Below, piece by piece: positions 4,572 through 64,000 of a stretch of DNA of 64,000 nt. Position numbers and translations under genes: made by a program. The notes under the pieces are model-generated. The model was not told the origin of the DNA and ran no database searches. It saw only the letters and a list, made by a program, of their open reading frames with translations. Location of the stretch: NCBI GenBank assembly GCA_026646655.1, contig JAPKHT010000005.1, positions 23,956 through 87,955 on the forward strand, read 5' to 3'. The stretch comes from Verrucomicrobiia bacterium. Its GTDB lineage: Bacteria > Verrucomicrobiota > Verrucomicrobiia > JADLBR01. Positions within the stretch are counted from its first letter, which is position 1, and each line of letters opens with the position of its first letter.

Positions 4572-7500
4572 ATGAAGACGGATGGACTCGGATGGAGGTG
4601 GGTGCGCCAGAGAAAGTGTAGCCGAGCGCGTGAGCGCTTGGCCGACGGGGTTGGTGTTGGGCCGGGCCAAACGCTGACGCGTTCGGCTGCGCTGGCCACC
4701 TGGGCGCTCGTGGCGTGGTGCGTGTTTTCGGTTGCCGATGCCGCGCCCGCAAAGGTGCTCTTGTTCTCTGGGCAGAACAACCACGCCTGGGAGAAGACGA
4801 CGCCGGTGCTGAGGGGAATCCTCGAAGATGCGGGGGCCTGTTCGGTGGAGGTGACGGAGGCGCCGCAGGATCTCGATCCGGCGGGGCTGAAGGGCTTCGA
4901 TGTCATCGTCAGCAACTGGAACGCGTGGGGGGCCAAGGGCAAGGGGGCGGCGGTGGCGGATTGGCCGGAGGCGCTGAAGAAGGCGTACGTGGAATTCGTG
5001 GCGTCCGGCGGGGGGCACGTGGCGGTGCACGCGGGCACGTCGTCCTTCGAGGGCTGGGAGGATTACCAGCGGATCTGCGGGGCGACGTGGGGCCTGGGGC
5101 AGACGAGCCATGGCCCGCCGCACGAGTTCGAGGTGCGGGTGGACGACCCATCGCACCCGATCACGCGGGGTTTGGCGGCATTTCGTACGACGGACGAACT
5201 GTGGAATCGCCCCAAGGTGCAGCCGGGATTCCGGGCGATCGCCTCGTCGTTCTCGGAGACGGACCACAAGGGGACGGGGGAATGGGAGCCGACGGCGATC
5301 GTGGGGACCTTTGGGCGGGGCAGGTGCTACGCGCTTCTGCTCGGTCACGATGCGACCGCAATGGGCAACCCGGGATTCAAGGAACTGCTCCGGCGTGGCG
5401 TGGCTTGGGCCGCGGCAGGCAAGGCGGAAGCCGCGGCGGGGAAGGCCGTCCCGGCCTTACGGGACTGGACTCCTGACCAAGGGCTGGCGCCATTCAACGA
5501 GGCGGCCCGGGCGGTGCAGGCCGCCGGCAACGATCCGGCGGGTCGCGCCGAGGTGGCCAAGAAATTGGCGGGGCTATTGGGCGAGCCGGTGCCCGCGGCG
5601 GTGAAGAAGTTCGCCTGCGAGCAGCTGGCGGTCGTGGGAGGGGAGGCGGAGGCGGGGGCGCTCTGCGCGCTGCTGGGTGACGAGGCGCTGGAGACGCCGG
5701 CGAGGGGCGCGCTGGAACGGATTGGTGGACAGAGGGTGGCGGCGCTGCTGCGCGAAGCGTATTCGAGGGCGGAAACACCTGCGCGACGAGCCGGGATCCT
5801 CGGAAGCCTGGCGAAGCTCGGGGACGCGCGGGCGGTGCCTTTGGCGGCCGGGGCGCTGGCGTCGGAGGACGGGGTGCTGCGTGCGGCGGCGATGGTGGCG
5901 CTGGGGCAGATCGGCGGGGAGGCGGCCGCGGGCGCGCTGCTCGGGATCGAGGGGAGCCTGGGCGACGCGGACAAAATGCCGTGGGGCGGCGCTCTGCTGG
6001 CATGCGCCGAGGGGATGGGACCCGCGCAAGGCGGGAGGATTCTGGATCGTCTGGTGAAAGTGGGTCGACCCGCGAGCATCCGTGCCGCGGCGCTCGCGGC
6101 GAAGATCCGGCTGGCGGACCAGGGGGGGTTGGCTCTGGCTGTCCGCGCGCTGCGGGGCGCGGATGAGGCGTTGCGGCGGGGGGCACTCGATGCATTGAGG
6201 GCGGACCGGGGCGCGAGATTGCGGGCATGGCAAGGGGCCATCGCACGAGCGGTGGGCGAGTTTGCCGAGCCGGTGCGCCTGGCGGTGCTGGATGCATATG
6301 TCGCCAATCGCATCCGGGGGGGAGCCCTGCTGGCCGAGGGCTTGGCGAGATCCAAGGATCCCGCCGCTCGCGGTGCGGGTCTGCGCGCGCTTGGCGAGCT
6401 GGGGTCGGAGCCCTATTTCGACATCCTGTTTGATCATCTGGTGGGCGAATCACCGGAAGACCGTGCCGCGGCGACCGACGGATTGGCGGTATTGCGGGCG
6501 GCGTCCACCGACGGGCGACTCATCGCGTTGCTCGAAACGGTTAATCCGACCGCAGCACCCGCGGTGGTCGAAGTGCTGCGGCGCCGGGGCACGACGTCTG
6601 CCGTGCCCGCGCTGTTGACCTTGGCGCGCGGCGGGGATGCCGAGACCGCCAAGGCCGCGGCGCGAGCGGCCGGTGAACTCGGGGGCCCGGCGGCGATCCC
6701 GGGGCTCGCGGATGTCATCTCGAAAGGCGGGCCCGGTGCACAGAGCGCGGCTCAAGTGCTGGCGAAGATCGCCCGGGCGGAACCGGAGGTGGCGAAGGCG
6801 CGGCTGGCGATTGCCATTCCCATGGCGCCGGAATCCGCGCGGGAGACCTTCGGCAAGATACTGGCGCTCGTGGATGGTTCGGCAAAGGGCGGCAGCGCGG
6901 CGGTGCCGGGACTCGGGCGGAATCTGGCGGTGGGCGCCCAGGCCGAAAGCCCGACGGGACTCAAGGCGGACGGTGCCGCCGGCGGGCCGGGCGCCGCCGT
7001 GGATGGCGACCCGGCGACCTATTGGGACGAGCAGAACGGCCAACCGGAGTACCGATTGCGGGTCACGCTGAAAGAGGAGGCGACCGTCTCGAGGTTGCGG
7101 ATCACGGGCTACCGGCACCACGAATTCTCGGCCAGGGATCTCGCGGTGCTGTGCAACGGGCGAGAGGTCAAGAGGGTCGCGGACGCCACGTACGATAACA
7201 ATCAACTGCTATTACAATTTCCAGAAACCCCCTGCAAAGTCGTCGAGCTGCGCATCACGGCCTATTACGGGGGCAGCCCGGCGATCAGGGAACTGGAGAT
7301 CTTTGGCGATGCGGCGCGGAAAGAGGGGGCGAAGGTGCCGGGGGTGCCCTCGGCGGGCGGAGGCCTTTCCTGGGAGAAGGGCGATGATTCCGTGGCGCTG
7401 CTGTCGGCAGGCAAACCGGTGTGGCGGCTCACGCATGGGGCGAAGGAGCCATTCCCCTATTTTGATCCGCTGGGCCTCGTCGGCGGCGGGAATCTGGTGT

Positions 7501-8240: not shown

Positions 8241-8295
8241 AAAGCATGGGCGCGGGGATGGTGGCCGAACGCACGGGCGTCTGGCCGGGGAGGCA

Positions 8296-9711: not shown

Positions 9712-9802
9712 AGGCTATCTCGAGAATTGCCGCAGCACTTCCCGTAGGCGAACGCGCGAGCGTTTGGGCGCGAAAGCCTCACGGCTTCGGCTACATTTTG
9801 CC
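9712..9802 (+). repeat. Dispersed repeat family A, copy 1 (forward orientation)
   Basis: ctcgagaattgccgcagcacttcccgtaggcgaacgcgcgagcgtttgggcgcgaaagcctcacggcttcggctacattttgcc. Intergenic, between the Gfo/Idh/MocA gene and hemY. Confidence 0.85.
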
Positions 9803-11237: not shown

Positions 11238-11322
11238 GGCTCGAGAATTGCCGCATCGCTTCCCGTAGCCGAACGCGTAAGCGTTTGGCCGCCAAAGCCT
11301 CACGGCTTCGGCTGCACTTTCA
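11238..11322 (+). repeat. Dispersed repeat family A, copy 2 (forward)
   Basis: ctcgagaattgccgcatcgcttcccgtagccgaacgcgtaagcgtttggccgccaaagcctcacggcttcggctgcactttcac. Lies between hemH and hemY and overlaps the hemH 3' end. Confidence 0.85.
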
Positions 11323-14909: not shown

Positions 14910-15062
14910 GCTCGAAAATAGCCGCAGCGCCTCCCGCAACCGAACGCGTAAGCGTTTGGCCGCCAATGCCTGACTCGAAAATTCGTAGCCACGGTCGCCA
15001 GACCGTGGACCCGGGGTTGAGTCGAACGATCTCCGGCAACCGCCGGACCAGATGGGCTACAC
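14910..15062 (+). repeat. Dispersed repeat family A, copy 3: two tandem units (forward), the second divergent
   Basis: First unit: ctcgaaaatagccgcagcgcctcccgcaaccgaacgcgtaagcgtttggccgccaatgcctga. Second unit: ctcgaaaattcgtagccacggtcgccagaccgtggac...gggctacactttggctc. Confidence 0.75.
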
Positions 15063-30918: not shown

Positions 30919-31006
30919 AGAAAATGCAGCCGAGGCCGTGAGGCCTTGGCGGCCAAACGCTTACGCGTTCGGCTACGGGAGGCGATGCGGCATTTTCGGG
31001 TCAGCC
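30919..31006 (-). repeat. Dispersed repeat family A, copy 4 (reverse)
   Basis: Its reverse complement (gctgacccgaaaatgccgcatcgcctcccgtagccgaacgcgtaagcgtttggccgccaaggcctcacggcctcggctgcattttc) is near-identical to copy 2. Confidence 0.85.
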
Positions 31007-42014: not shown

Positions 42015-42118
42015 AAAAGCCGTAAGGCTGTAGGTGTCCGGATTCGCCAAACGGAGATCCAGTGGCCGGACGCGTGAGCGTTCGGCCAAAGCCTTACGGC
42101 TTCGGCTACATTTTCATC
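42015..42118 (+). repeat. Dispersed repeat family A, copy 5 (forward, variant 5' arm)
   Basis: ...gccaaacggagatccagtggccggacgcgtgagcgttcggccaaagccttacggcttcggctacattttcatc. Confidence 0.75.
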
Positions 42119-45465: not shown

Positions 45466-45552
45466 CTCAAAAATTACCGCGTCGCTTCCCGTAGCCGAAC
45501 GCGTGAGCGTTTGGGCGCCAATCGCCCGAGGCGATCGGCCACATTTTCCCAA
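45466..45552 (+). repeat. Dispersed repeat family A, copy 6 (forward)
   Basis: ctcaaaaattaccgcgtcgcttcccgtagccgaacgcgtgagcgtttgggcgccaatcgcccgaggcgatcggccacattttccc. Confidence 0.85.
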
Positions 45553-48540: not shown

Positions 48541-48630
48541 GTGAAAGTGTAGCCGATCGCCTCGGGCGATTGGCGGCCAAACGCTCACGCGTTCGGCTAC
48601 GGGACGCGATGCGGCCATTTTCGAGTCAGC
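48541..48630 (-). repeat. Dispersed repeat family A, copy 7 (reverse)
   Basis: gtgaaagtgtagccgatcgcctcgggcgattggcggccaaacgctcacgcgttcggctacgggacgcgatgcggccattttcgagtcagc. Confidence 0.85.
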
Positions 48631-54272: not shown

Positions 54273-54515
54273 GGCAGTGCGCCCGATCCCGCGGTCCTCA
54301 TTCTTCATTGTGGCGATGAAGTTTTATGCGCCCACCGCACCCGCGGCGGGCGAATGAGAGGGAGCGGCGCAGATATTCGGACTTCGGGCCTCGAACCTCG
54401 CTCCCGCCTTCACCGCCGGACTTGGACCGGAGACTGGCATCTTGGGAGTCTGTAACCCGTTACCGTAGCGCAACTGTTCCCGATTCTCACGGGATTCCCT
54501 GGAGCCGCACCCATC
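54250..54515 (-). promoter_or_regulatory. Cobalamin (AdoCbl) riboswitch with SD-sequestering expression platform
   Basis: The minus-strand RNA reads GGGUGCGGCUCCAGGGAAUCCCGUGAGAAUCGGGAACAGUUGCGCUACGGUAAC...GCACUGCCCGGCCUCCAGG...CUGGAGGAUUCACAUG. It matches the Rfam RF00174 core (GGUGC..AGGGAA..GGUGnAAnUCC..ACnGUAA) and a B12-box-like GCACUGCC. The anti-SD CCUCCAGG pairs with the SD CUGGAGG of the downstream gene. Confidence 0.55.
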
Positions 54516-54660
54516 TTGTCACCCGGTTCCCCGCATCGCGTGCCGGGGCCGGGCCGGATCTAGCAAAGAACCGGATCCAGCCTGATCGCGCGGGGGCGGG
54601 GAGTCAAGGGGAGATTCGGGACCGCGTGCCGAGGCGAGGGGGCGTCGGCCCCAGGAATTG

Positions 54661-55605
54661 TCACCCGAGTATCGCCCTGAGCACGGCGAGGTCCTTCTTG
54701 ATTGCGGCGAAGACTTCTTCGCGCGGGATGGACTGGCCGGGGGCCGGGCGCTCGGGGAGGTATTCGCTGTGGAGGCTGACGGGTGCCGAGGCGGCCGGGC
54801 CGGTGAGGAGTTTCACGAAGCGCTTGAAGTCGACCAGGCCGGTCCCCAGGGGGACGTTGTCGACGGTCTGTTTGCCATCTTTCTCTTTGAAGGCGAAGTC
54901 CTTGAAGTTGAGCGTCTGGATATATGGCATGATGGCGGCGAGGCCGAGTTGCCAGCAACCGAGGCCCTCGACGGTCGCGTGGCGGATGTCGTACTGGCAA
55001 CCGATCCACTCCGAGGTGATGTTGCGGAGCACGTGCCACAGGTCCCAGATCGCGGCGCCGAAATACTCGCCGGCGTGGTTCTGGACATTGCCGCGGATCC
55101 CGATGTCCTTGTTCATCTGCGCGAGCGCCCTGAGATGGGCCTCGATGTCGGACAACGACTTCTCGATCGGGGACGACTTGTCGTACTTGTGCCAGTTGGT
55201 GCGGTAGAATTTGATCCCGACCTTGGCGGCGGTGCGCAGTATGGTTTCGGCGTGGGGATCTTCCGGGCTGCCGATGGCGGTGACGATGGTGTCGAGGCGC
55301 ATGCCGTTGGCCCTGGCGGCCTCGGCGGCCCTGGGGAGGTCGTCGGCGGCGCGCTCGGGCAGGACGTGGCCCTTGGGGCGCACGGTGAGGTCGAGGCCGT
55401 CGAGGCCGAGTTCTGCGGCGGCGGCGAAGGCGTCCTTGCAGTCGAGCCAATGCAGTTGCTTTGAGAAAAAGGAGATGGGCCGTTTGGCCGGTGCGGCTGA
55501 TTGGGCCGGCGATGCTCCGGCGGCGGCGCCGAGGGCCAGTCCGGCGGTCGCGCCTGCGGATAGGGTCAGGAAACTCCTGCGGTTCATGCGGGGTTCAATA
55601 TTCAT
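54661..55605 (-). CDS. Sugar phosphate isomerase/epimerase (xylose isomerase-like TIM barrel), Tat-exported
   Basis: Tat motif NRRSFLTLSAGATAGLALGAAA plus TIM-barrel motifs. Start taken at 55605 (alternative at 55587). Confidence 0.75.
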   Translation of the reverse strand: MNIEPRMNRRSFLTLSAGATAGLALGAAAGASPAQSAAPAKRPISFFSKQLHWLDCKDAFAAAAELGLDGLDLTVRPKGHVLPERAADDLPRAAEAARANGMRLDTIVTAIGSPEDPHAETILRTAAKVGIKFYRTNWHKYDKSSPIEKSLSDIEAHLRALAQMNKDIGIRGNVQNHAGEYFGAAIWDLWHVLRNITSEWIGCQYDIRHATVEGLGCWQLGLAAIMPYIQTLNFKDFAFKEKDGKQTVDNVPLGTGLVDFKRFVKLLTGPAASAPVSLHSEYLPERPAPGQSIPREEVFAAIKKDLAVLRAILG

Positions 55606-55631: not shown

Positions 55632-56513
55632 TCAGGCCAGCGACGCCGCGGTCTTCTCCACGAAATCGATGCAGGCCTTGAGGTCGTCCAGAAGTTGGGG
55701 GGATTGATGCTCGTATTCGAGCGTCATGGTCCCCTGAAACTTCTGGCGGTGCAATTCGCGCAGGACGGCGTCGTAGCGGGCCTTGCCGGTGCCGAGGGGC
55801 ACGTCGCGGCATTTCGGGTTGCCGACCTCGGGGACATCCTTGGCGTGGACGTTGATGATGCGTCCCTCGAGTTTCTTGAGGCACTCGACGGGATCGAGGC
55901 CCGAGCGCACCCAGTGGCCGGTGTCGGGGCAGGCGCCGATCCGGGGACCGCGGTCCTTGACGGCGGCGAGCACGCTTTCGGGATTCCAGTATTTCGATGT
56001 GGGCCTGTCGTTGGGGTGGTTGTGGATGGCGAGGTTGATGGCGTAACTCTCGCAGAGTTCCTCGATGCCATCGAGCGCCTCGGTCGGGGGTTCGGCGACG
56101 AGGGTCTCGACGCCCATCTCCTTGGCGTACTCGAAGATGGCGCGGTTGGCGTCGGGGTCCGCCTCGACCTTGGCGTAGAAGTTGGTCATCGCGACGCCCG
56201 CCTTGGCCAGGCGACCCTTGAGTTCCTCGCGGAGTTCCGGGGCGAGGGACTCGGATGTGGTGAGCTTGGGCCTGGAGGCGTCGAGTTTCAGGAAGAAGGC
56301 GGGCTCGATATGGCGGATGCCGAGGCCGGCGATCTGGTCCAGCGCCTCGTAGAGGCTGATGGCGCGGAAGGTGTAGGTTGCGACGCAGAATTGCCAGCCG
56401 AGTCTTGCGGCGGCGGACGAGTCGGCCGGGGCGGAGCGGGCGCGGCGCGGGAGCGCGGCCGCGAGGCCCGAGGAGGCGAGGAATCCGCGGCGGGTGATGA
56501 CGGGTGCGACCAT
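55632..56513 (-). CDS. Sugar phosphate isomerase/epimerase (TIM barrel), Tat-exported
   Basis: Tat motif TRRGFLASSGLAAAL. Motifs GIRHIEP, LAIHNH, GHW and HAKD. Confidence 0.8.
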   Translation of the reverse strand: MVAPVITRRGFLASSGLAAALPRRARSAPADSSAAARLGWQFCVATYTFRAISLYEALDQIAGLGIRHIEPAFFLKLDASRPKLTTSESLAPELREELKGRLAKAGVAMTNFYAKVEADPDANRAIFEYAKEMGVETLVAEPPTEALDGIEELCESYAINLAIHNHPNDRPTSKYWNPESVLAAVKDRGPRIGACPDTGHWVRSGLDPVECLKKLEGRIINVHAKDVPEVGNPKCRDVPLGTGKARYDAVLRELHRQKFQGTMTLEYEHQSPQLLDDLKACIDFVEKTAASLA

Positions 56514-56709: not shown

Positions 56710-57969
56710 TCACTCGACGGTGGGTTTCACACCGGTGCGGAAGGCGACGTTGCGGGCCTTGAACTCCTGCTGGAGGCGCGGGGAGAACTCACCGGTCGTC
56801 CAGATGACGAGTTGTTTGCCGGGCAACTGGGTCGCGATCTCATCGGCGCGTTGCGCGATGCGAGGGAACCAGATGGCATAGTCCAGGTGGACGGGGATGA
56901 AGACGCGGCCCTGGGCGTCCTCGCAGAGCATCACGAGCTTGCTGGGGAGGATGCGGACGATCGGCGCCTCGGTCTTGTGGTACATGGCCATGAGCTGCGC
57001 GCAGCGCTGGAAGAAGTGGGCGTCCTCCTCGGCCTGCGAGAGCACGGCGGTCTGGAGGAAGGCGCCTGCGTCGACGCTGCGCCCGAGCGTGGCGAGGGCA
57101 TCGCAGATCACCGCCTCGTGCATCGGGGAGAACGCGTGGTGCTGGAGGAATGGCTCGGTCTGCTCGCGGCTGAGGCCCAGTTCGAGGAGCTTCTTCCGGT
57201 CCTCGATGCGGAGGTTTGCGGGGTCGGTATCGCGGACGCGCTGGTAGAGGCGGGTGTTGGCATTGACCGCGGTGACGGCGAGTCCGGCCGCGCCGCCGGT
57301 CGCGGCGCTCAGGCCGAGGTTGATCGCGCCGCCGACGCCGGCCTGGACCCAGGCGATCTTGTTCAGCTCGTCCTGGAGTTCCGGGTTGGTGGAATAGGGG
57401 TCGACGTTGTACTTCGCGGCAAGCTGGCGCTTGGCCTGCGAGGCGCCGGCGAGGTCGGTATATGCCTTGTCCTCGTAGTCGCTGGCGCCGCCCTTGAGGT
57501 TCTCGCCGATCTTGCCGAAGAAGCGGCTGGCGCCCTTGGGGACGGAGCCGATGGTCTTTAGGGGATTCATGATGGCGCTGCCCGCGGCCTTGAGCTTGTC
57601 GCCGCCGGCCTTGCCGAGGGCCTGGCCAAAGCTCTCGCTGGAGGAGACGCGGCGCATGTCCTCGATCGCGGCGGCCTCGGCGATGCGCTGGAGGAGCAAC
57701 TCGGTGCCGAGCACCTCGTAGCTCTTGCCGGACGAGAGGGTGATCTGATAGCGATTCATCAGCCCGTCGTTGTACGCCTGCGGGTACACGCTGTAGCCGG
57801 CCCCTTGCAGCGGGGCGGGCGCGGTGAAGTGCGCCGCATTTACCGGCCCTGGGTTCTCGAAGGCCCCGGTTTCCGGGGCGTCCGCCCAGGCGCCGCACGC
57901 CGCAACCCAAGCTGCCGCCATAGCCGAGAACACCCGTCCCGGCACCCTGTTGTCGCACTTGTATCTCAT
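56710..57969 (-). CDS. Hypothetical secreted protein, 26 nt downstream of the pentameric channel gene
   Basis: 419 aa with a strong AAGGAG SD, signal peptide VFSAMAAAWVAACGAWA, and no recognisable domain. Confidence 0.6.
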   Translation of the reverse strand: MRYKCDNRVPGRVFSAMAAAWVAACGAWADAPETGAFENPGPVNAAHFTAPAPLQGAGYSVYPQAYNDGLMNRYQITLSSGKSYEVLGTELLLQRIAEAAAIEDMRRVSSSESFGQALGKAGGDKLKAAGSAIMNPLKTIGSVPKGASRFFGKIGENLKGGASDYEDKAYTDLAGASQAKRQLAAKYNVDPYSTNPELQDELNKIAWVQAGVGGAINLGLSAATGGAAGLAVTAVNANTRLYQRVRDTDPANLRIEDRKKLLELGLSREQTEPFLQHHAFSPMHEAVICDALATLGRSVDAGAFLQTAVLSQAEEDAHFFQRCAQLMAMYHKTEAPIVRILPSKLVMLCEDAQGRVFIPVHLDYAIWFPRIAQRADEIATQLPGKQLVIWTTGEFSPRLQQEFKARNVAFRTGVKPTVE

Positions 57970-57995
57970 GGTTCTCCTTCTCCGTTTCAGTTGTT

Positions 57996-59195
57996 TCAAA
58001 AGCAAAAAGTCGAGATCCCCGCCACCGCGGCGATCAGCAGCGCATAGGTGATCGGAAACGCCCACCGGCAGCGGTGATCGATGCGGTGGCCGCGCGCCGA
58101 CTCGCCACGCTTTTCGCAGGCGCCGACCCAGAGGTTGACCGCGACGGTGGCGCACATCAACAGGAAACTGACGTTGAGGAAGCCGTGGATGAATGTCACG
58201 TACGCGATATCCGGGAGGATGCCGCCGATGACCATCTGGTAGGCGACGACCGTCAGGATGCCGACGAAGGACACGCTGACGCGGTCTCCGGCGGCGGACC
58301 GGTCCATCCAGAAGACCGACCAGGAGAGCATGACGATCACCACCAGCGGCAGCATGATCAGTCGCACCACGAAGAACGACTGCCTGCGCACATCGATCGC
58401 GAGGACGAATGCGGAGGACGCGCCCTCGGTGCCGGCGTAGGGGGCCTCGAGTTTTCGTGTCGACGAGGTAACGTCGCGGAGATCCCACTGGGGAACGCGG
58501 AGTTGCGGCGGGGGCTGCTCCCGGTCATCCTTTGCCACCTCGAGCGCCACGTCGCCCGACCCGAAACCGAGGACCTCGAAGACCGCCTCGAGCCGCTGGC
58601 GATCGAACGGATAGCGGCGCAGGTTGAGGTCCGACTTGGCGACGGCGTTAAATGTCTCTATCTGGGTGCACGTCCCATCCGGGCGGACGCGCAGCAGGAT
58701 CGCGTCCCGGTCGCACGTGCCGGAAACATTGGCGAGCACCACCTGGGGATACCAGGAGGGTGAGATCTCATCGCACTGATACGAGCCCTGATAGATTTTT
58801 TCGGCGACGCCCTCTTTGGCGGGGTCGAAGGCCTGCCGCGGGTCCTTCCAGACAAGTGTCAGGACGCCGGTGAACTCGAAGGTCTCCGCCTCGTCGTCGA
58901 TCCCGTTGATTTCCCAAAGGTGGAACGAGGCGCGGACGACCACAGGACGGTCGCCAGGAGGCGGCGTCAGCGCGCCGGGTGGGACGGATTGTGCCGGCGC
59001 GGCGCAGGGCGCCGCGATCACCGATGCCGCGACGAGCGACAGGGTCGGCTTGAAAAATTCCGTGGCCGAACGCGCCAGGCGTTTGGCGCGAGTCACCAGC
59101 GCCGTCGGCCAAACGCTTGCGCGTTCGGCTACATTTTCCCGGCGCGCCGCGTCCGGCGCGAGGCCCGGCCCACGCTGTTCAGACACCCGGGCCAT
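57996..59195 (-). CDS. Pentameric ligand-gated ion channel (Cys-loop receptor family, prokaryotic pLGIC); start uncertain (ATG 59195 or GTG 59096)
   Basis: Extracellular ligand-binding-domain motifs (PVVVRASFHLWEINGIDDEAETFEFTGVLTLVWKDPR) followed by four TM helices (M1: FFVVRLIMLPLVVIVMLSWSVFWM). The N-terminal about 45 codons are encoded by repeat-A copy 8. Confidence 0.75.
   Translation of the reverse strand: MARVSEQRGPGLAPDAARRENVAERASVWPTALVTRAKRLARSATEFFKPTLSLVAASVIAAPCAAPAQSVPPGALTPPPGDRPVVVRASFHLWEINGIDDEAETFEFTGVLTLVWKDPRQAFDPAKEGVAEKIYQGSYQCDEISPSWYPQVVLANVSGTCDRDAILLRVRPDGTCTQIETFNAVAKSDLNLRRYPFDRQRLEAVFEVLGFGSGDVALEVAKDDREQPPPQLRVPQWDLRDVTSSTRKLEAPYAGTEGASSAFVLAIDVRRQSFFVVRLIMLPLVVIVMLSWSVFWMDRSAAGDRVSVSFVGILTVVAYQMVIGGILPDIAYVTFIHGFLNVSFLLMCATVAVNLWVGACEKRGESARGHRIDHRCRWAFPITYALLIAAVAGISTFCF
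59052..59140 (+). repeat. Dispersed repeat family A, copy 8 (forward, two palindrome cores)
   Basis: gaaaaattccgtggccgaacgcgccaggcgtttggcgcgagtcaccagcgccgtcggccaaacgcttgcgcgttcggctacattttccc. Lies inside the 5' end of the pLGIC ORF. Confidence 0.8.
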
Positions 59196-59199
59196 CAGT

Positions 59200-61668
59200 T
59201 CACTGTCGGCCCATCGCGGCATTGATGGCGTCCTCCGGATTGACGAGATGGTCCGCGTTGTTCGGGTCATCGGCGATGGAGAGCTGGACGCCGCTGACGT
59301 CGCCGTTGAAACCATTGCCGACGGGGCCGTAATCGGGGGAGACGGGGGCGCCGGTATCCTCACCGACGTCGCAGCCGTCATCGGCGGAGAAGACGATGGC
59401 CTGTGTCATCGGGATCTCGCCCTGACCGACTGGCTTGCCATCGACGAACAGGGTGGCCTTGCCGCCCTTGCCGAGGCCGCCGCCGGCGTAGGCGAACTCC
59501 ATGCGCACCTGGCGCCGGCCCGGCGGCAGGGCATCCTTCGACTCGACGAAGAAATGCTTCACGCCGGCCAGGTTGTAGCAGTACTTCAATTTTCCGCCCT
59601 TGGCGTAGAGGCTCCAGCCGCCGATGTTCGCGCCCTGGGCGATGATCACCCCTTCGGCGCCAGATGGGGGCACATCGATCTCCGCGGTGATCGAGTGGGA
59701 TTTGTTCTTGATGCTGAGCACGCAATTCTCGGAGAGGCGGCCCATGCCGCCGAAGAGGAGCTGGGTCTTGCCCCTGACGAGGATCGGGCGTCCGGCGGTA
59801 TCCGGATCCATCTTCTCGGTGGTCCTGTCGTCGATGGGCAGCACCTTGTGGCGGGTCGCCTCGATCAGCCAGAGCCGCTGCAGGTCGCGGAGTTTCTCGG
59901 GCATCTGTTTCGACAGGTCATTCGCCTGGCTCCAGTCCTTATCCGAGTAGAGTTCCCAGACGTCGTCGTCGAGTGGGACGGTCTTCTGTCCCATGATAAT
60001 CCACGGTGTGCGGTGCTTCGTGACGGCGGTCCATCCCTTGTGGTAGATGCCGCGGTTGCCGAACATCTCGAAGTACTGGGTCTCGTGGCGCTCGGGGGCA
60101 TCTGCGCCGTTGAATGAGTACAGCATGCTGACGCCTTCGATGGGATCCTGCTGGATGCCGTTCACGAACTCGGGCTGCGGGAGTCCCGCCGCCTCGAGGA
60201 TGGTGGGCGCGACATCGATGACGTGGGCGAACTGCGATCGGATTTCGCCCCGGGCCTTGATTCCCTTGGGCCAGTGGATGACGGTGCCATTGCGGGTGCC
60301 GCCCCAGTGGGAGGCGACCTGCTTGGTCCACTGGTAGGGGGTGTTGAGCGCGTGCGCCCAGCCGACGGCATAGTGGTTGTAGGATTCCGGCCCGCCGAGC
60401 TTGTCGATGCGGGCCATGAGGAACTCGGGGGTCTCGAGGGCCGCCAGGCCATTGAAGTTGGCCATCTCGTTATACGCGCCGTTCAAGGTGCCCTCGGCCG
60501 AGGCGCCGTTGTCCCCGACGATGTAATACACGAGGGTGTCGTCGAGGATGCCGAGTTTCTCGAGGGAATCGATGATGCGGCCGACGTGGTGATCGACGTA
60601 TTCCATGTACCCCGCGTAGACTTCCATCTGGCGGCGCAGCACGGGTTTGAGGGCCTCGGGCATCTCGTCCCAGGATGGGATTTCCTTGTGGCGGGCGGTG
60701 AGCTGGCAATCGGCGGGAATGACGCCCAGCTTCTTCTGTCGGGCGAAGATCTCCTCGCGGAGCTTGTCATAGCCCTGGTCGAACTTGCCCTTGTACTTGT
60801 CAGCCCACTCCTTCGGCACATGGTGCGGCGCGTGGGTGGCGCCGGGGGCGAAATAGATGAAGAAGGGCTTGTCGGGCGTGAGGGCCTTCTGCTGGCCGAT
60901 CCATTTGAGGGCCTTGTCCGTCATGTCGGCCACGAGATGATAGCCCTGTTCGGGCGTTTTCTTGAGTTCGACGGGGGTGGTGCCCTCGTAGAGCGTGGGG
61001 TACCACTGGTTGGCCTCGCCGCCGATGAACCCGTAGAAGTACTCGAAGCCGCCGCCGCCGGTGGGCCAGGCATCGAACGGCCCGGCCGGGCTCGTCTGCC
61101 AGACCGGGACCTCGTGGCATTTGCCAAACTGCGCGGTCGCATAGCCGTTGAGCGTGAGCGTGCGCGCGAGCGGGGACATGGTGTTGGGCAGGACCGAGCA
61201 GTAGCCCGGCGCGCCGGTGGCGACCTCCGTGATGCCACCCATGCCCGCCGAGTGATGATTGCGGCCGGTGAGCAGCGCCTGGCGCGTGGGCGAGCAGAGG
61301 GCCGTGGTGTGGAACCGATTGTACTTGAGACCGCCCGCGGCGAGTCTCTCGACGGTGGGAGTCTGGCAGGGGCCGCCGAAGGCGCTGGAGGAACCGAAGC
61401 CGGCGTCATCGATGAGGATGACCAGGACGTTCGGGGCGCCCTTTGGCGGGCGGAGTTGTTGGATAGGGGGGAACTTGCTGTCCGGGTCCCTGGCATCGTA
61501 GGTGATCAGGGCGGGCCGGGTCGTATTCGGCATGGGCAGGTGGGAGCGGTGCTTGATTTCAAGCCCGGCGGTGGAGGCGGCCTTTTCCTGTGCCATGGCA
61601 GGGAAGGCGAGGGTTGCGATCGCGGCGACGAAAATTGCGGCGATTGAGGTCCGGAGGGTGTTTTTCAT
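59200..61668 (-). CDS. Arylsulfatase (formylglycine-dependent, Cys-type) with about 300-aa C-terminal extension
   Basis: Signal peptide MKNTLRTSIAAIFVAAIATLAFPAMAQE. Sulfatase signature CSPTRQALLTGR plus GKCHE. 822 aa. The stop is 4 nt upstream of the pLGIC ATG. Confidence 0.9.
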   Translation of the reverse strand: MKNTLRTSIAAIFVAAIATLAFPAMAQEKAASTAGLEIKHRSHLPMPNTTRPALITYDARDPDSKFPPIQQLRPPKGAPNVLVILIDDAGFGSSSAFGGPCQTPTVERLAAGGLKYNRFHTTALCSPTRQALLTGRNHHSAGMGGITEVATGAPGYCSVLPNTMSPLARTLTLNGYATAQFGKCHEVPVWQTSPAGPFDAWPTGGGGFEYFYGFIGGEANQWYPTLYEGTTPVELKKTPEQGYHLVADMTDKALKWIGQQKALTPDKPFFIYFAPGATHAPHHVPKEWADKYKGKFDQGYDKLREEIFARQKKLGVIPADCQLTARHKEIPSWDEMPEALKPVLRRQMEVYAGYMEYVDHHVGRIIDSLEKLGILDDTLVYYIVGDNGASAEGTLNGAYNEMANFNGLAALETPEFLMARIDKLGGPESYNHYAVGWAHALNTPYQWTKQVASHWGGTRNGTVIHWPKGIKARGEIRSQFAHVIDVAPTILEAAGLPQPEFVNGIQQDPIEGVSMLYSFNGADAPERHETQYFEMFGNRGIYHKGWTAVTKHRTPWIIMGQKTVPLDDDVWELYSDKDWSQANDLSKQMPEKLRDLQRLWLIEATRHKVLPIDDRTTEKMDPDTAGRPILVRGKTQLLFGGMGRLSENCVLSIKNKSHSITAEIDVPPSGAEGVIIAQGANIGGWSLYAKGGKLKYCYNLAGVKHFFVESKDALPPGRRQVRMEFAYAGGGLGKGGKATLFVDGKPVGQGEIPMTQAIVFSADDGCDVGEDTGAPVSPDYGPVGNGFNGDVSGVQLSIADDPNNADHLVNPEDAINAAMGRQ

Positions 61669-61734: not shown

Positions 61735-61825
61735 CAAGCGGGAAAGAGTCTAGCCGATCGCCCCAGGCGATGGGCCGATGGTCTTGGTGGCGCGGGCCAA
61801 ACGCTGGCGCGTTCGGCTACAAATG
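61735..61825 (-). repeat. Dispersed repeat family A, copy 9 (reverse, 3' arm diverged)
   Basis: gagtctagccgatcgccccaggcgatgggccgatggtcttggtggcgcgggccaaacgctggcgcgttcggctacaaatgctcgc. Confidence 0.75.
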
Positions 61826-61874: not shown

Positions 61875-62768
61875 TCATTCTTCGACTTTCGACCATCCAT
61901 CGCCGGGGTTGTATTCCGTCATCGCGGACGCGGTCGTGGCCGTGTCTGGGCCAAGGTCCTTCTCGTAGACGACGCCGTAGTGATTAACGAGGAAGGTCAT
62001 CACGCCGGTCTCCCGGTATCCGGCGGGCCAGGCGACCATGGCGAAGCCGCCGATGAAGTGGTCGTTGATGATGTAGCTATACTTGCCTGCGGGCGCCTTG
62101 TCTCCCTGTGCGGTGAGGATCTTGAAGTGATAGCCCCAGTGGGGGGTATCCGGGTCTTTGATCGCGGGTCCGGCCGGGCTGGGCTCCTCGCCCTTCTTGG
62201 GATCAGAAGGCCAATAGAGGCCGTCCTTCTTGCCTGGCGAGCTCTGGATCTTGCGCGCGAATTGGCGGACCGCGGTGCCGTCGCGCGGGACGGCGGCGTA
62301 TTGCCGTTGCGCATCGACGTAGGCGCGCAGGGCGGTGATCGCCGCCAGCTCATTCTCGCCGACGCGGCGTTTCACGACCTCGTCGATGCCGGCATCGGTG
62401 TCGAACCGCCAGCCGGCGTCGGTCTTGACCAGGGGGATCGGGAAGGGCCACGCCTCGAAGCCGACGACGAGGCTGACTGAGCCATCGTCGTTGCCGCGGA
62501 GGCGCTTGCGCTCCCCGGCCATCTTGGCGAATTTGGCGCGCAACTCGCGGTCGCGCGTGGGATCGGCGGTGCCGATCTGGTCCTTGTGCTTGTCGCCAAA
62601 AATTTCCAGCAGGGGTGCCGTCTCGCCGGTTTTTGCGGCGGCGATCAGGGCCTCGCCGGCATCGTAGGGCGTGGGGAAGACGCGCTGGGCCGGGGCCTTT
62701 TCCTCCGCACCGGTGGCGTGGTTCAGGAAAGCCGCTGTCAGGATCAAGAGGATGATGCGTGTTTTCAT
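61875..62768 (-). CDS. DUF2950-family secreted protein
   Basis: Signal peptide MKTRIILLILTAAFLNHATGA, about 297 aa. Adjacent to a DUF3300-like gene (a gene pair conserved in proteobacteria). Family assignment is from memory and of moderate confidence. Confidence 0.55.
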   Translation of the reverse strand: MKTRIILLILTAAFLNHATGAEEKAPAQRVFPTPYDAGEALIAAAKTGETAPLLEIFGDKHKDQIGTADPTRDRELRAKFAKMAGERKRLRGNDDGSVSLVVGFEAWPFPIPLVKTDAGWRFDTDAGIDEVVKRRVGENELAAITALRAYVDAQRQYAAVPRDGTAVRQFARKIQSSPGKKDGLYWPSDPKKGEEPSPAGPAIKDPDTPHWGYHFKILTAQGDKAPAGKYSYIINDHFIGGFAMVAWPAGYRETGVMTFLVNHYGVVYEKDLGPDTATTASAMTEYNPGDGWSKVEE

Positions 62769-62795: not shown

Positions 62796-64000
62796 TTACC
62801 GCCGCCCGCCCCGCGAGCGACCGCCTCCGCCACCTCCGCCGAAGCTGTGGGAGCCTCGCTCGCTGACGCCGCGGGATTGAAATCCCGAAGACGCCCCGCC
62901 GAAGGCGCCCCCGCCGGAGCGACCCTCGAAGCCTCCGCCCCCTCCCCCGAATCGATTTTCGAGCCCGCCGCCTCCACCTCCTCCAAAGCGATTCTCGACG
63001 CCGCCGGCCTGGCCCCCTCCAAGGCGGCTTTCGAGTCCTCCGGACGAGGCGCCACCGGAACGCTCACCGAATCCCGAACCGCCCCCGAAGCCGGACGAGG
63101 CGTATTGGCTGGCGCCCGCCCAGCCGCCCTGGCGGTTGGCGGCGGCGGCCTGCCAATTCTGCCCCCCAGCCGGCATGCTGGGCATCGTGCTGGGGCGCTG
63201 GGACTGGGCGCCCGAAACCGCGGTTTGGCGCTGGGCCTGCATGTCGGCCCTTTGGGTCTGGGCGCCGCTGAAGGCATCTTGCCGCTGGGATTGATTCGCG
63301 GAGGTGGTGTCGCGGAAAGCATCCTGCCGCTGGGTCTGATTGTTCTGGGCGGCCTGCTGGCGATCCTTCTGCCGATCCTCGCCGTAGTCCTGCCAATCTT
63401 CGCGCGCGTCCGTGCGGTAATCTTGCCAGTCCTCGCGGGCGTGGTTCGCGTAGTCCATCCGCTGGTCTTGGAGGTAGGCGGCCTGGGCACCGTAGGGGGC
63501 GTAATACACGGACCCGGCAGCCCAGTTCATGCTGTAGGCGGTCGCGAGCCCGGCGATGTACCCGACGGCGGCCGCCGCCCCAGGGGCGTAGTATGCAGGC
63601 GCGGGCGCCGAGTACGTGACCACGGGCGCCGCCTGTTGCACCACCACCGTAGTGGGCTGGTATTGGGGGACGTAGATCACATTCGGCTGGGCGGGCTGGA
63701 TCTGCACCACGTCCTGTTTGACGACGATGGTCTGCTTGTCGTTGGATTGGAGATTGCCGGCGCTCTGCGCCTTCCGGCGGAAGATCTGGATCGCGTCGAA
63801 CACGTCTTTCTGTTGATGCGTCACCGCATAGCCCAGCGCCTGGGTCCAATCGAGGTTATCGCCCATGAGATTCACCACTTCGGGATACGCCATGAGCCCG
63901 AGAATCGGCTGGGGAATCGAGGGGTCAGGCTTCAGGGTCTTGTCCTTGGCGTACTGCGCCAGAAAGCGCTGCGCCTTGACGATCTCCAGGGGCGTGGTGG
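62796..64000 (-). CDS. DUF3300-like protein with Gln/Arg-rich and Gly-rich low-complexity C-terminus; 5' end lies beyond the window
   Basis: The frame stays open upstream of 63893 to the window edge. The C-terminus carries degenerate QxQRQDAF and GGGGxxENRFGGGG repeats. Confidence 0.5.
   Translation of the reverse strand, partial: TTPLEIVKAQRFLAQYAKDKTLKPDPSIPQPILGLMAYPEVVNLMGDNLDWTQALGYAVTHQQKDVFDAIQIFRRKAQSAGNLQSNDKQTIVVKQDVVQIQPAQPNVIYVPQYQPTTVVVQQAAPVVTYSAPAPAYYAPGAAAAVGYIAGLATAYSMNWAAGSVYYAPYGAQAAYLQDQRMDYANHAREDWQDYRTDAREDWQDYGEDRQKDRQQAAQNNQTQRQDAFRDTTSANQSQRQDAFSGAQTQRADMQAQRQTAVSGAQSQRPSTMPSMPAGGQNWQAAAANRQGGWAGASQYASSGFGGGSGFGERSGGASSGGLESRLGGGQAGGVENRFGGGGGGGLENRFGGGGGGFEGRSGGGAFGGASSGFQSRGVSERGSHSFGGGGGGGRSRGGRR

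Follow-up and report, generated by a model that had tools for sequence, protein, structure and literature searches.

What does a bacterial ligand-gated ion channel of the pentameric type (pLGIC) respond to when its gene stands beside that of an exported arylsulfatase? The question is raised by a 64,000-nt stretch of DNA from a Verrucomicrobiia bacterium (contig JAPKHT010000005.1 of GenBank assembly GCA_026646655.1), called the window throughout, whose minus strand carries in order a sulfatase gene, a pLGIC gene and a gene for a 419-aa protein that we call unk419. We know of no physiological role or natural agonist established for bacterial pLGICs, and GLIC and ELIC are the chief models for the structure of human neurotransmitter receptors. 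The original prediction for this locus, made from its letters alone, was of a tight three-gene operon forming a module that senses or responds to sulfated glycans or sulfate esters. We find that long arylsulfatases recur beside channels of this type in several phyla and in varying arrangements, that the genes of the window belong to a co-oriented cluster of five, and that sulfatase and channel may plausibly be linked in function.

Results

Profile searches with HMMER matched the channel to both parts of a pLGIC, with Neur_chan_LBD, the ligand-binding domain (LBD), at 6e-14 (52.4 bits, cut-off 26) and Neur_chan_memb at 4e-11 (44.2 bits, cut-off 28.1), and the NCBIfam model LGIC_1 matched at 1e-63. 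The protein also aligns full length with GLIC (E ~5e-39, over residues 77–387), so that by profile and by alignment it has the fold on which the original prediction depended, and it contains four hydrophobic segments at residues 236–366. Its Pro-loop lies within RRYPFDRQ, of which P163 and D165 are invariant in an alignment of the subfamily; the subfamily keeps the YPFD Pro-loop, a GDR motif before the second transmembrane helix (M2), and a leucine at position 9' of M2. No pair of cysteines flanks the YPFD loop in the channel, which by its motifs we class as a Pro-loop receptor and not as a Cys-loop receptor in the strict sense. Bacterial pLGICs lack the Cys-loop disulfide as a rule (PMC4795631).

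Members of the channel subfamily are 55–60% identical across Verrucomicrobiota, Phycisphaerae and Myxococcota. The subfamily is abundant in metagenomes: clustering at 90% identity leaves more than 1400 groups with E ≤ 1e-20 among the matches listed, and the premise that prokaryotic pLGICs are rare thus fails for it. It is an established rule among pLGICs that a GEK-type motif before M2 goes with cation selectivity, and because the GDR of the window channel resembles the GEK of cationic pLGICs, the channel is probably cation-selective. It probably also assembles as a homopentamer, since the locus holds a single such gene and bacterial pLGICs are usually homomeric.

The neighbouring enzyme is a Cys-type formylglycine (FGly) sulfatase, as had been proposed: it matches Pfam Sulfatase (PF00884) at E = 4e-68 and carries a CSPTR motif with Cys125. 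Its closest solved relative is the Pseudomonas aeruginosa arylsulfatase PAS (PDB 1hdh, E = 6e-61), residues 4–517 of which align with residues 78–600 of the window protein, including D87/D88, CSPTR (Cys125), GKCH, the histidine of ATHAPH, and GDNG. Residues 4–28 are hydrophobic, which fits export. The C-terminal extension beyond the PAS-like core covers residues 601–822, about 220 aa and not the ~300 aa first estimated, and looks like a LamG/ConA-like beta-sandwich in a low-confidence model (shallow alignment; predicted local distance difference test score, pLDDT, 57) of which the fold class alone was used. The enzyme is a candidate member of the PAS/AtsA-like subfamily, S1_4 of SulfAtlas. The NCBIfam equivalog models for arylsulfatase and choline-sulfatase score far under their cut-offs, and a choline-sulfatase with choline as the channel's ligand was dropped on this ground (TIGR03417, 46.9 bits against a cut-off of 433). 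A tblastn search of the 64-kb window for the formylglycine-generating enzyme (FGE) found no homologue (best E 0.8); the other maturase, anSME, was not in that search. FGE does adjoin the sulfatase orthologue in Mesorhizobium (locus L126).

The sulfatase family comprises at least 8000 clusters at E ≤ 1e-50. Within it, the mature window sulfatase is 80–87% identical to proteins from Variovorax, Mesorhizobium, Fuerstiella, Phycisphaerae and Anaerolineales records. At L125, L126, L128, L130 and L131 (Variovorax, Mesorhizobium, Planctomycetes-like and other records) the figure is 84–87%, whereas neighbouring DUF2950 proteins are just 45% identical. The contrast suggests either extreme purifying selection or a recent horizontal transfer that involved the sulfatase gene by itself.

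The pairing of sulfatase and channel extends well beyond the window. A metagenome scan with the channel subfamily alignment yielded 80 further loci, with channels 51–60% identical, and their neighbours were counted after removal of shadow open reading frames (ORFs). Sulfatase was the most frequent neighbour family of the channel (12/85 loci, or 9/44 loci having at least 3 kb of flank). Long sulfatases, 42–58% identical, lie near the channel in nine of the 80 metagenome loci (L046, L048, L054, L060, L080, L085, L088, L103 and L114), with the C-terminal extension wherever the contig allows it to be seen, and account for 9/12 of the sulfatase genes flanking these loci. Some share the strand of the channel, on its upstream or its downstream side, and others are convergent to it. 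Sulfatase-linked channels are 47–60% identical to that of the window and fall into six of 36 clusters at 70% identity. At L131 the order is reversed, the pLGIC preceding, by 154 nt, a sulfatase that shares 84% identity with that of the window; this locus also carries PSCyt2, PSD1 and DUF1501 genes, which we take to be typical of Planctomycetes. At L132 (Phycisphaerae) a short, divergently oriented sulfatase adjoins the pLGIC.

Close relatives of the locus preserve its order with additional genes between. L001 and L041 both keep the succession of sulfatase, pLGIC and 419-aa gene, and the adjacency is thus found outside the window. At L041, whose channel is 86% identical, the order is DUF2950, sulfatase, a 177-aa membrane protein, an LssY_C protein, pLGIC and unk419; the last three junctions are 4-nt overlaps or short, and the two extra genes are translationally coupled to the channel. 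L001 retains the 177-aa gene, with LssY_C reduced to a 38-aa remnant, and in the window both genes are missing. The channel of L108 likewise has an LssY_C protein near it, and the 275-aa protein encoded upstream of the channel at L085 matches LssY_C weakly (E ~3e-5). At L042 (channel 72% identical) a convergent unk419 homologue follows the channel, with no sulfatase in the 4 kb upstream. DUF2950 lies upstream of the orthologous sulfatase at L041, L085, L126 and L128/L129.

The ORF listing bore out the three co-oriented minus-strand reading frames that had been proposed, and the gap of 26 nt between channel and unk419 genes proved correct. The cluster is larger upstream and runs DUF3300, DUF2950, long arylsulfatase, GLIC-type channel and unk419, with successive spacers of 27, 206, 103 and 26 nt (Table 1). 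The DUF3300 gene matches its Pfam family at 4.7e-27 from profile position 69, its frame being open as far as base 63998. Of the operon of three, the common strand and the order kept in L001 and L041 stand, while the tight trio is not conserved.

The spacing between sulfatase and channel turns on a repeat. An element resembling a repetitive extragenic palindromic (REP) hairpin, GTAGCCGAACGCGNNAGCGTTTGGCC, of 26 nt with a 9-bp stem and a 4-nt loop, was counted at least 10 times in the window (expected number 0), and all copies that could be placed lie between ORFs, on rough ORF calls. It was not found in the orthologous loci L001 and L041 and is therefore specific to this genome or lineage. Exact copies lie in the spacers on both sides of the sulfatase gene. 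A channel start at ATG 59195, on which the claimed 4-nt gap to the sulfatase rests, would set one of these hairpins inside the N-terminus of the protein, and orthologous channels start no earlier than the position that corresponds to residue 40 of this long reading. GTG 59096, the first in-frame start past the repeat, gives MTRAKRLARSATEFFKPTLSLVAASVIAAPCAAPAQS, a typical signal peptide, and on these grounds it is most likely the true start; the other possible starts are 59186, which gives the length of a 396-aa NCBI record, and 59195. Because it holds the hairpin, the interval 59097–59199 is read as non-coding, and the gap becomes a 103-nt spacer.

No minus-strand terminator-like site was found in the cluster spacers by the terminator scan, nor any RNA element within the cluster by the Rfam scan; neither the promoter nor the terminator scan exceeded what is expected from shuffled sequence, the sigma-70 scan being empty. 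We infer that the cluster genes may be co-transcribed.

Table 1. Positions of the cluster genes, repeat copies and related features (window coordinates unless a locus is named)
Feature	Position	Strand	Description
DUF3300 gene	62796..64000	minus	first gene of the co-oriented cluster, cut by the window end
DUF2950 gene	61875..62768	minus	297 aa, exported; Pfam DUF2950 match 2e-97
Sulfatase gene	59200..61668	minus	822 aa, exported; Pfam Sulfatase and PAS alignment
pLGIC gene	57996..59096	minus	366 aa from GTG 59096; Neur_chan_LBD, Neur_chan_memb, LGIC_1, GLIC
unk419 gene	56710..57969	minus	419 aa, exported; small unannotated family; 26 nt after channel gene
REP-like hairpin, exact copy	61795..61820	minus	in the 206-nt DUF2950/sulfatase spacer
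REP-like hairpin, exact copy	59107..59132	minus	in the sulfatase/channel spacer
GTAGCCGAACGCGNNAGCGTTTGGCC sites, first part	4618-4690, 8264-8285, 9744-9769, 11265-11290, 14936-14961, 30951-30976		
GTAGCCGAACGCGNNAGCGTTTGGCC sites, second part	42065-42086, 45491-45516, 48575-48600, 59107-59132, 61795-61820		
Extra genes between sulfatase and channel	L041 4411-5411; L001 6263-6909; window counterpart 59097-59199		
Histidine kinase and response regulator/PP2C genes	L085 8343-12440		directly after the channel
DUF1254/DUF1214 three-gene set	L131 12544-17044; L135 9800-14119; L086; L094		with sulfatase in L131, without in L135
AP_endonuc_2 genes	54661-55578; 55632-56513	minus	two adjacent paralogues, directly downstream of the cluster
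Cobalamin riboswitch	54349-54568	minus	Rfam RF00174, 45.5 bits, E=5e-9

Directly downstream of the cluster lie two adjacent paralogous genes for xylose-isomerase-like TIM-barrel proteins (AP_endonuc_2), the nearer one 196 nt after unk419; the N-termini of both look exported. A cobalamin riboswitch follows, upstream of a minus-strand run of genes for a 467-aa exported protein, a He_PIG Ig-domain protein, a DUF4430 protein, an unannotated product, an ABC ATPase and an ECF S-component. This run is probably a B12 uptake cluster.

The last gene of the cluster defines a small family. The 419-aa product has a signal-peptide-like N-terminus and, as had been suggested, is predicted to be secreted. Searches of Pfam, NCBIfam and the PDB gave no match, and comparison of a family profile with the PDB and Pfam was likewise empty. 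Among 5.8 billion clusters the family has 38 matches, 0 of them with a Pfam domain; its alignment is well conserved and its N-termini are signal-peptide-like. Assignment as a lipoprotein (VAAC, residues 22–25) was dropped, the cysteine not being conserved across the family. In an AlphaFold2 model (mean pLDDT 73) the N-terminal part is a small beta domain, the middle is helical with two Gly/Ala-rich stretches that are disordered, and the C-terminal part is an alpha/beta domain. In 185,579 species genomes we found 40 unk419 loci, mostly in Chthoniobacterales, with some in Nitrospirota, Alpha- and Deltaproteobacteria. The family most often encoded near them is an alpha/beta-hydrolase of ~550 aa (18 loci by clustering, 20 by tblastn), followed by Lnb_N/DUF4105 (11), a YkuD L,D-transpeptidase (8), DUF2950 (8), DUF3300 (5), DUF2092 (5) and a 781-aa protein that lacks annotation (5). 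The usual order is DUF3300, DUF2950, further genes, hydrolase, in some cases YkuD, unk419 and Lnb_N.

Around the sulfatase, the succession DUF3300, DUF2950 and long arylsulfatase is a recurrent unit in several phyla. In Mesorhizobium (L126) it reads DUF2092, further genes, DUF3300, DUF2950, sulfatase, a 136-aa product, DUF202, a second sulfatase, FGE and DUF1622, with an MscS-like channel near by. L128/L129 carry a FadL/TodX-type porin, DUF3300, DUF2950, a 296-aa product, sulfatase, Phenol_MetA_deg and another sulfatase; the outer-membrane channels for hydrophobic compounds at L128 hint that the substrates may be hydrophobic or aromatic sulfate esters. Variovorax (L125) has MMPL, the long sulfatase, DUF1214, a further sulfatase, DUF1269 and a transposase, and the sulfatase homologue of L130 has no related neighbours.

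These groupings overlap. The pair DUF3300 and DUF2950 is found beside sulfatase in Mesorhizobium and other genomes, beside unk419 in Chthoniobacterales, and beside a pLGIC at L085, where the order is sulfatase, DUF3300, DUF2950, the 275-aa protein, pLGIC, a hybrid histidine kinase, and a protein that joins a response regulator to a PP2C (SpoIIE) phosphatase. The last two genes may link the L085 neighbourhood to a partner-switching or stress-signalling pathway. The ~550-aa alpha/beta-hydrolase of the unk419 loci (L004–L034) also stands beside the channel at the unrelated loci L066, L074, L076 and L077; Lnb_N lies near the channel at L085; a 501-aa family is common to L042 and L002, and a 296/368-aa family to L085, L128 and the unk419 loci L005, L006 and L012. 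Since unk419, the channel and the sulfatase each served as the seed of one of three independent locus sets, the families common to these sets argue that the five genes of the cluster belong together in one loose functional group of exported and membrane proteins. On this view the cluster seems to be an arrangement particular to its lineage, in which members of that group have been reshuffled and recently compacted.

In another sub-lineage a different set of three genes accompanies the channel, for a DUF1254/DUF1214 protein followed by unannotated proteins of ~400–460 aa and 510–535 aa (Table 1).

Discussion

How might sulfatase and channel work together? Starting from the gene identities, predicted topologies, co-orientation and recurrent pairings described above, we tentatively propose that the sulfatase works on periplasmic sulfate esters and that the LBD of the channel converts a linked cue into ion flux, a reading of which we are somewhat more doubtful than confident. 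The sulfatase would be matured to its formylglycine form by an enzyme encoded outside the 64-kb window, and would then cleave sulfate esters in the periplasm while its lectin-like C-terminal domain holds the substrate. The channel would be a homopentameric, cation-selective pLGIC of the inner membrane, its LBD facing the compartment of the sulfatase. A periplasmic cue tied to sulfatase activity could open it, be it the substrate, a local fall in pH, or the alcohol or phenol set free, and ion flux and a change in membrane potential would follow. The identity of the cue is the most conjectural part of this scheme. A narrower version, in which a substrate or product of the adjacent arylsulfatase (phenol, alcohol or acid) itself opens the channel and DUF3300/DUF2950 and unk419 act as periplasmic accessory factors, appears improbable.

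Several observations weigh against such a partnership. Most channel homologues have no sulfatase near by (for example L042, L043/L044, L133, L134 and L135), and bacteria of the Planctomycetes, Verrucomicrobia and Chlamydiae group can carry very many sulfatases, so that some adjacencies will arise by chance. Sulfatase genes are three times as dense within 1 kb of the channel as farther out, a borderline difference (7 against 5 genes in 117 and 255 kb of flank, binomial p = 0.049), and for the long type alone the comparison is 5 against 4 (p = 0.12); this enrichment is too weak to bear the argument by itself. The close juxtaposition in the window is recent, since the closest relatives have two additional genes in between, and the 103- and 206-nt spacers with their REP hairpins make co-transcription uncertain. 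A pLGIC lies within 8 kb of unk419 at only one of the 40 unk419 loci, L001 (a Verrucomicrobiales metagenome-assembled genome, 92% identity), and is absent from the other 39; unk419 is tied to DUF3300/DUF2950, not to channels outside the window lineage. Of the proton-sensing residues Glu35 and His235 (M2) of GLIC, the first has a conserved equivalent in the window channel and the second is a valine there.

A background rate drawn from a representative library (5328 matches among 1.84 billion) was unusable per gene, because a conserved family collapses on clustering at 50% identity. The qualitative argument is stronger: a single long type accounts for nine of the 12 flanking sulfatases, and rearrangement across phyla has left the pairing intact. 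The coupling of channel and sulfatase that was originally envisaged is partly supported, as a conserved and recurrent pairing, but not as a fixed operon, and unk419 is not a general partner of the channel.

A different account of the same neighbourhoods is that the genes share an envelope or stress regulon, whether ionic, osmotic, pH-related or general, with a channel cue that has nothing to do with sulfate esters and no direct coupling to the enzyme. We consider this somewhat unlikely, though parts of the context agree with it. Ion-transport and membrane proteins are encoded in related neighbourhoods (the MscS-like channel, DUF202 and DUF1622 at L126; DUF1269 at L125; TMEM175 and DUF202 at L135; NhaA at unk419 loci), as are the cell-envelope enzymes YkuD and Lnb_N; the signalling genes of L085 directly follow the channel; gene content and order vary widely between lineages; and DUF3300 and DUF2950 are described as induced, secreted proteins (PMC4653623). 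Yet we identified no regulator or shared promoter motif at the locus, where the sigma-70 scan was empty, and the long sulfatase is the single commonest neighbour of the channel in a pairing that withstands rearrangement across phyla, a pattern that loose co-regulation does not call for.

Chance juxtaposition of a common channel and a common sulfatase in a sulfatase-rich lineage, after a recent deletion of two genes, would agree with the genes of L041 (and partly L001) that are missing in the window, the REP elements present in both spacers and absent from L001 and L041, the borderline enrichment, the great size of both families, and L042, whose channel lacks an upstream sulfatase despite its convergent unk419 homologue, but it is unlikely, given that 9/12 flanking sulfatases are the same long type with a C-terminal extension and not random S1 subfamilies, that the pairing occurs in at least six divergent channel clusters from several phyla in varied orientations, and that independently seeded locus sets have further families in common.

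Should sulfatase and channel indeed form an enzyme-coupled ligand-gated channel, the locus would provide the first physiological ligand and role for a bacterial pLGIC. The recurrent link to one enzyme family narrows the candidate cues to sulfate esters, their desulfated products and pH. If chance or co-regulation alone explains the link, the locus is an envelope gene cluster like any other. The comparison also gives the widespread DUF3300–DUF2950 pair its first neighbourhood context, beside an unusually conserved long arylsulfatase, and defines unk419 as a new family of exported proteins.

Among characterized systems, the best solved relative of the channel is the proton-gated GLIC of Gloeobacter violaceus (PDB 3eam, 4hfi). 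Both proteins combine an LBD with four transmembrane helices, a short M3–M4 loop and a YPFD motif without the Cys-loop disulfide, and the motif DDKAETF around Glu35 of GLIC corresponds to DDEAETF in the window channel. The window channel differs in its GDR before M2, which is like the GEK of animal cationic receptors, and in a subfamily-specific conserved APYAG motif in loop C, which suggests a conserved orthosteric ligand. The sulfatase shares with PAS/AtsA the catalytic core, the FGly cysteine in CSPTR, and the metal ligands DD and DN together with Lys and His; in contrast to PAS, it adds an N-terminal signal sequence and the C-terminal LamG-like domain, and it sits in a clade of 790–825-aa proteins that keep their high identity across phyla.

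Published neighbours of bacterial pLGICs include type II periplasmic binding proteins (PBP-II), Cache proteins and a Na+/H+ transporter (Tasneem et al. 2005, PMC549065). That account mentions no sulfatase neighbourhood, and the literature searched held no paper connecting pLGICs with sulfatases. The scheme proposed for the window shares with the operons of Tasneem et al. the idea that a periplasmic accessory protein encoded beside the channel cooperates in small-molecule sensing; the window differs in that the neighbours are a sulfatase enzyme and DUF proteins rather than solute-binding or Cache domains. For DUF3300 and DUF2950, the sole substantive mention in the literature searched treats them as a universal pair in this order and as candidate "plant interaction determinants" of rhizobia, and gives no informative neighbourhood (PMC4653623). 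The window agrees with that description in having DUF3300 upstream of DUF2950 and signal peptides on the products, and goes beyond it in that the pair recurs here beside a long arylsulfatase and beside unk419.

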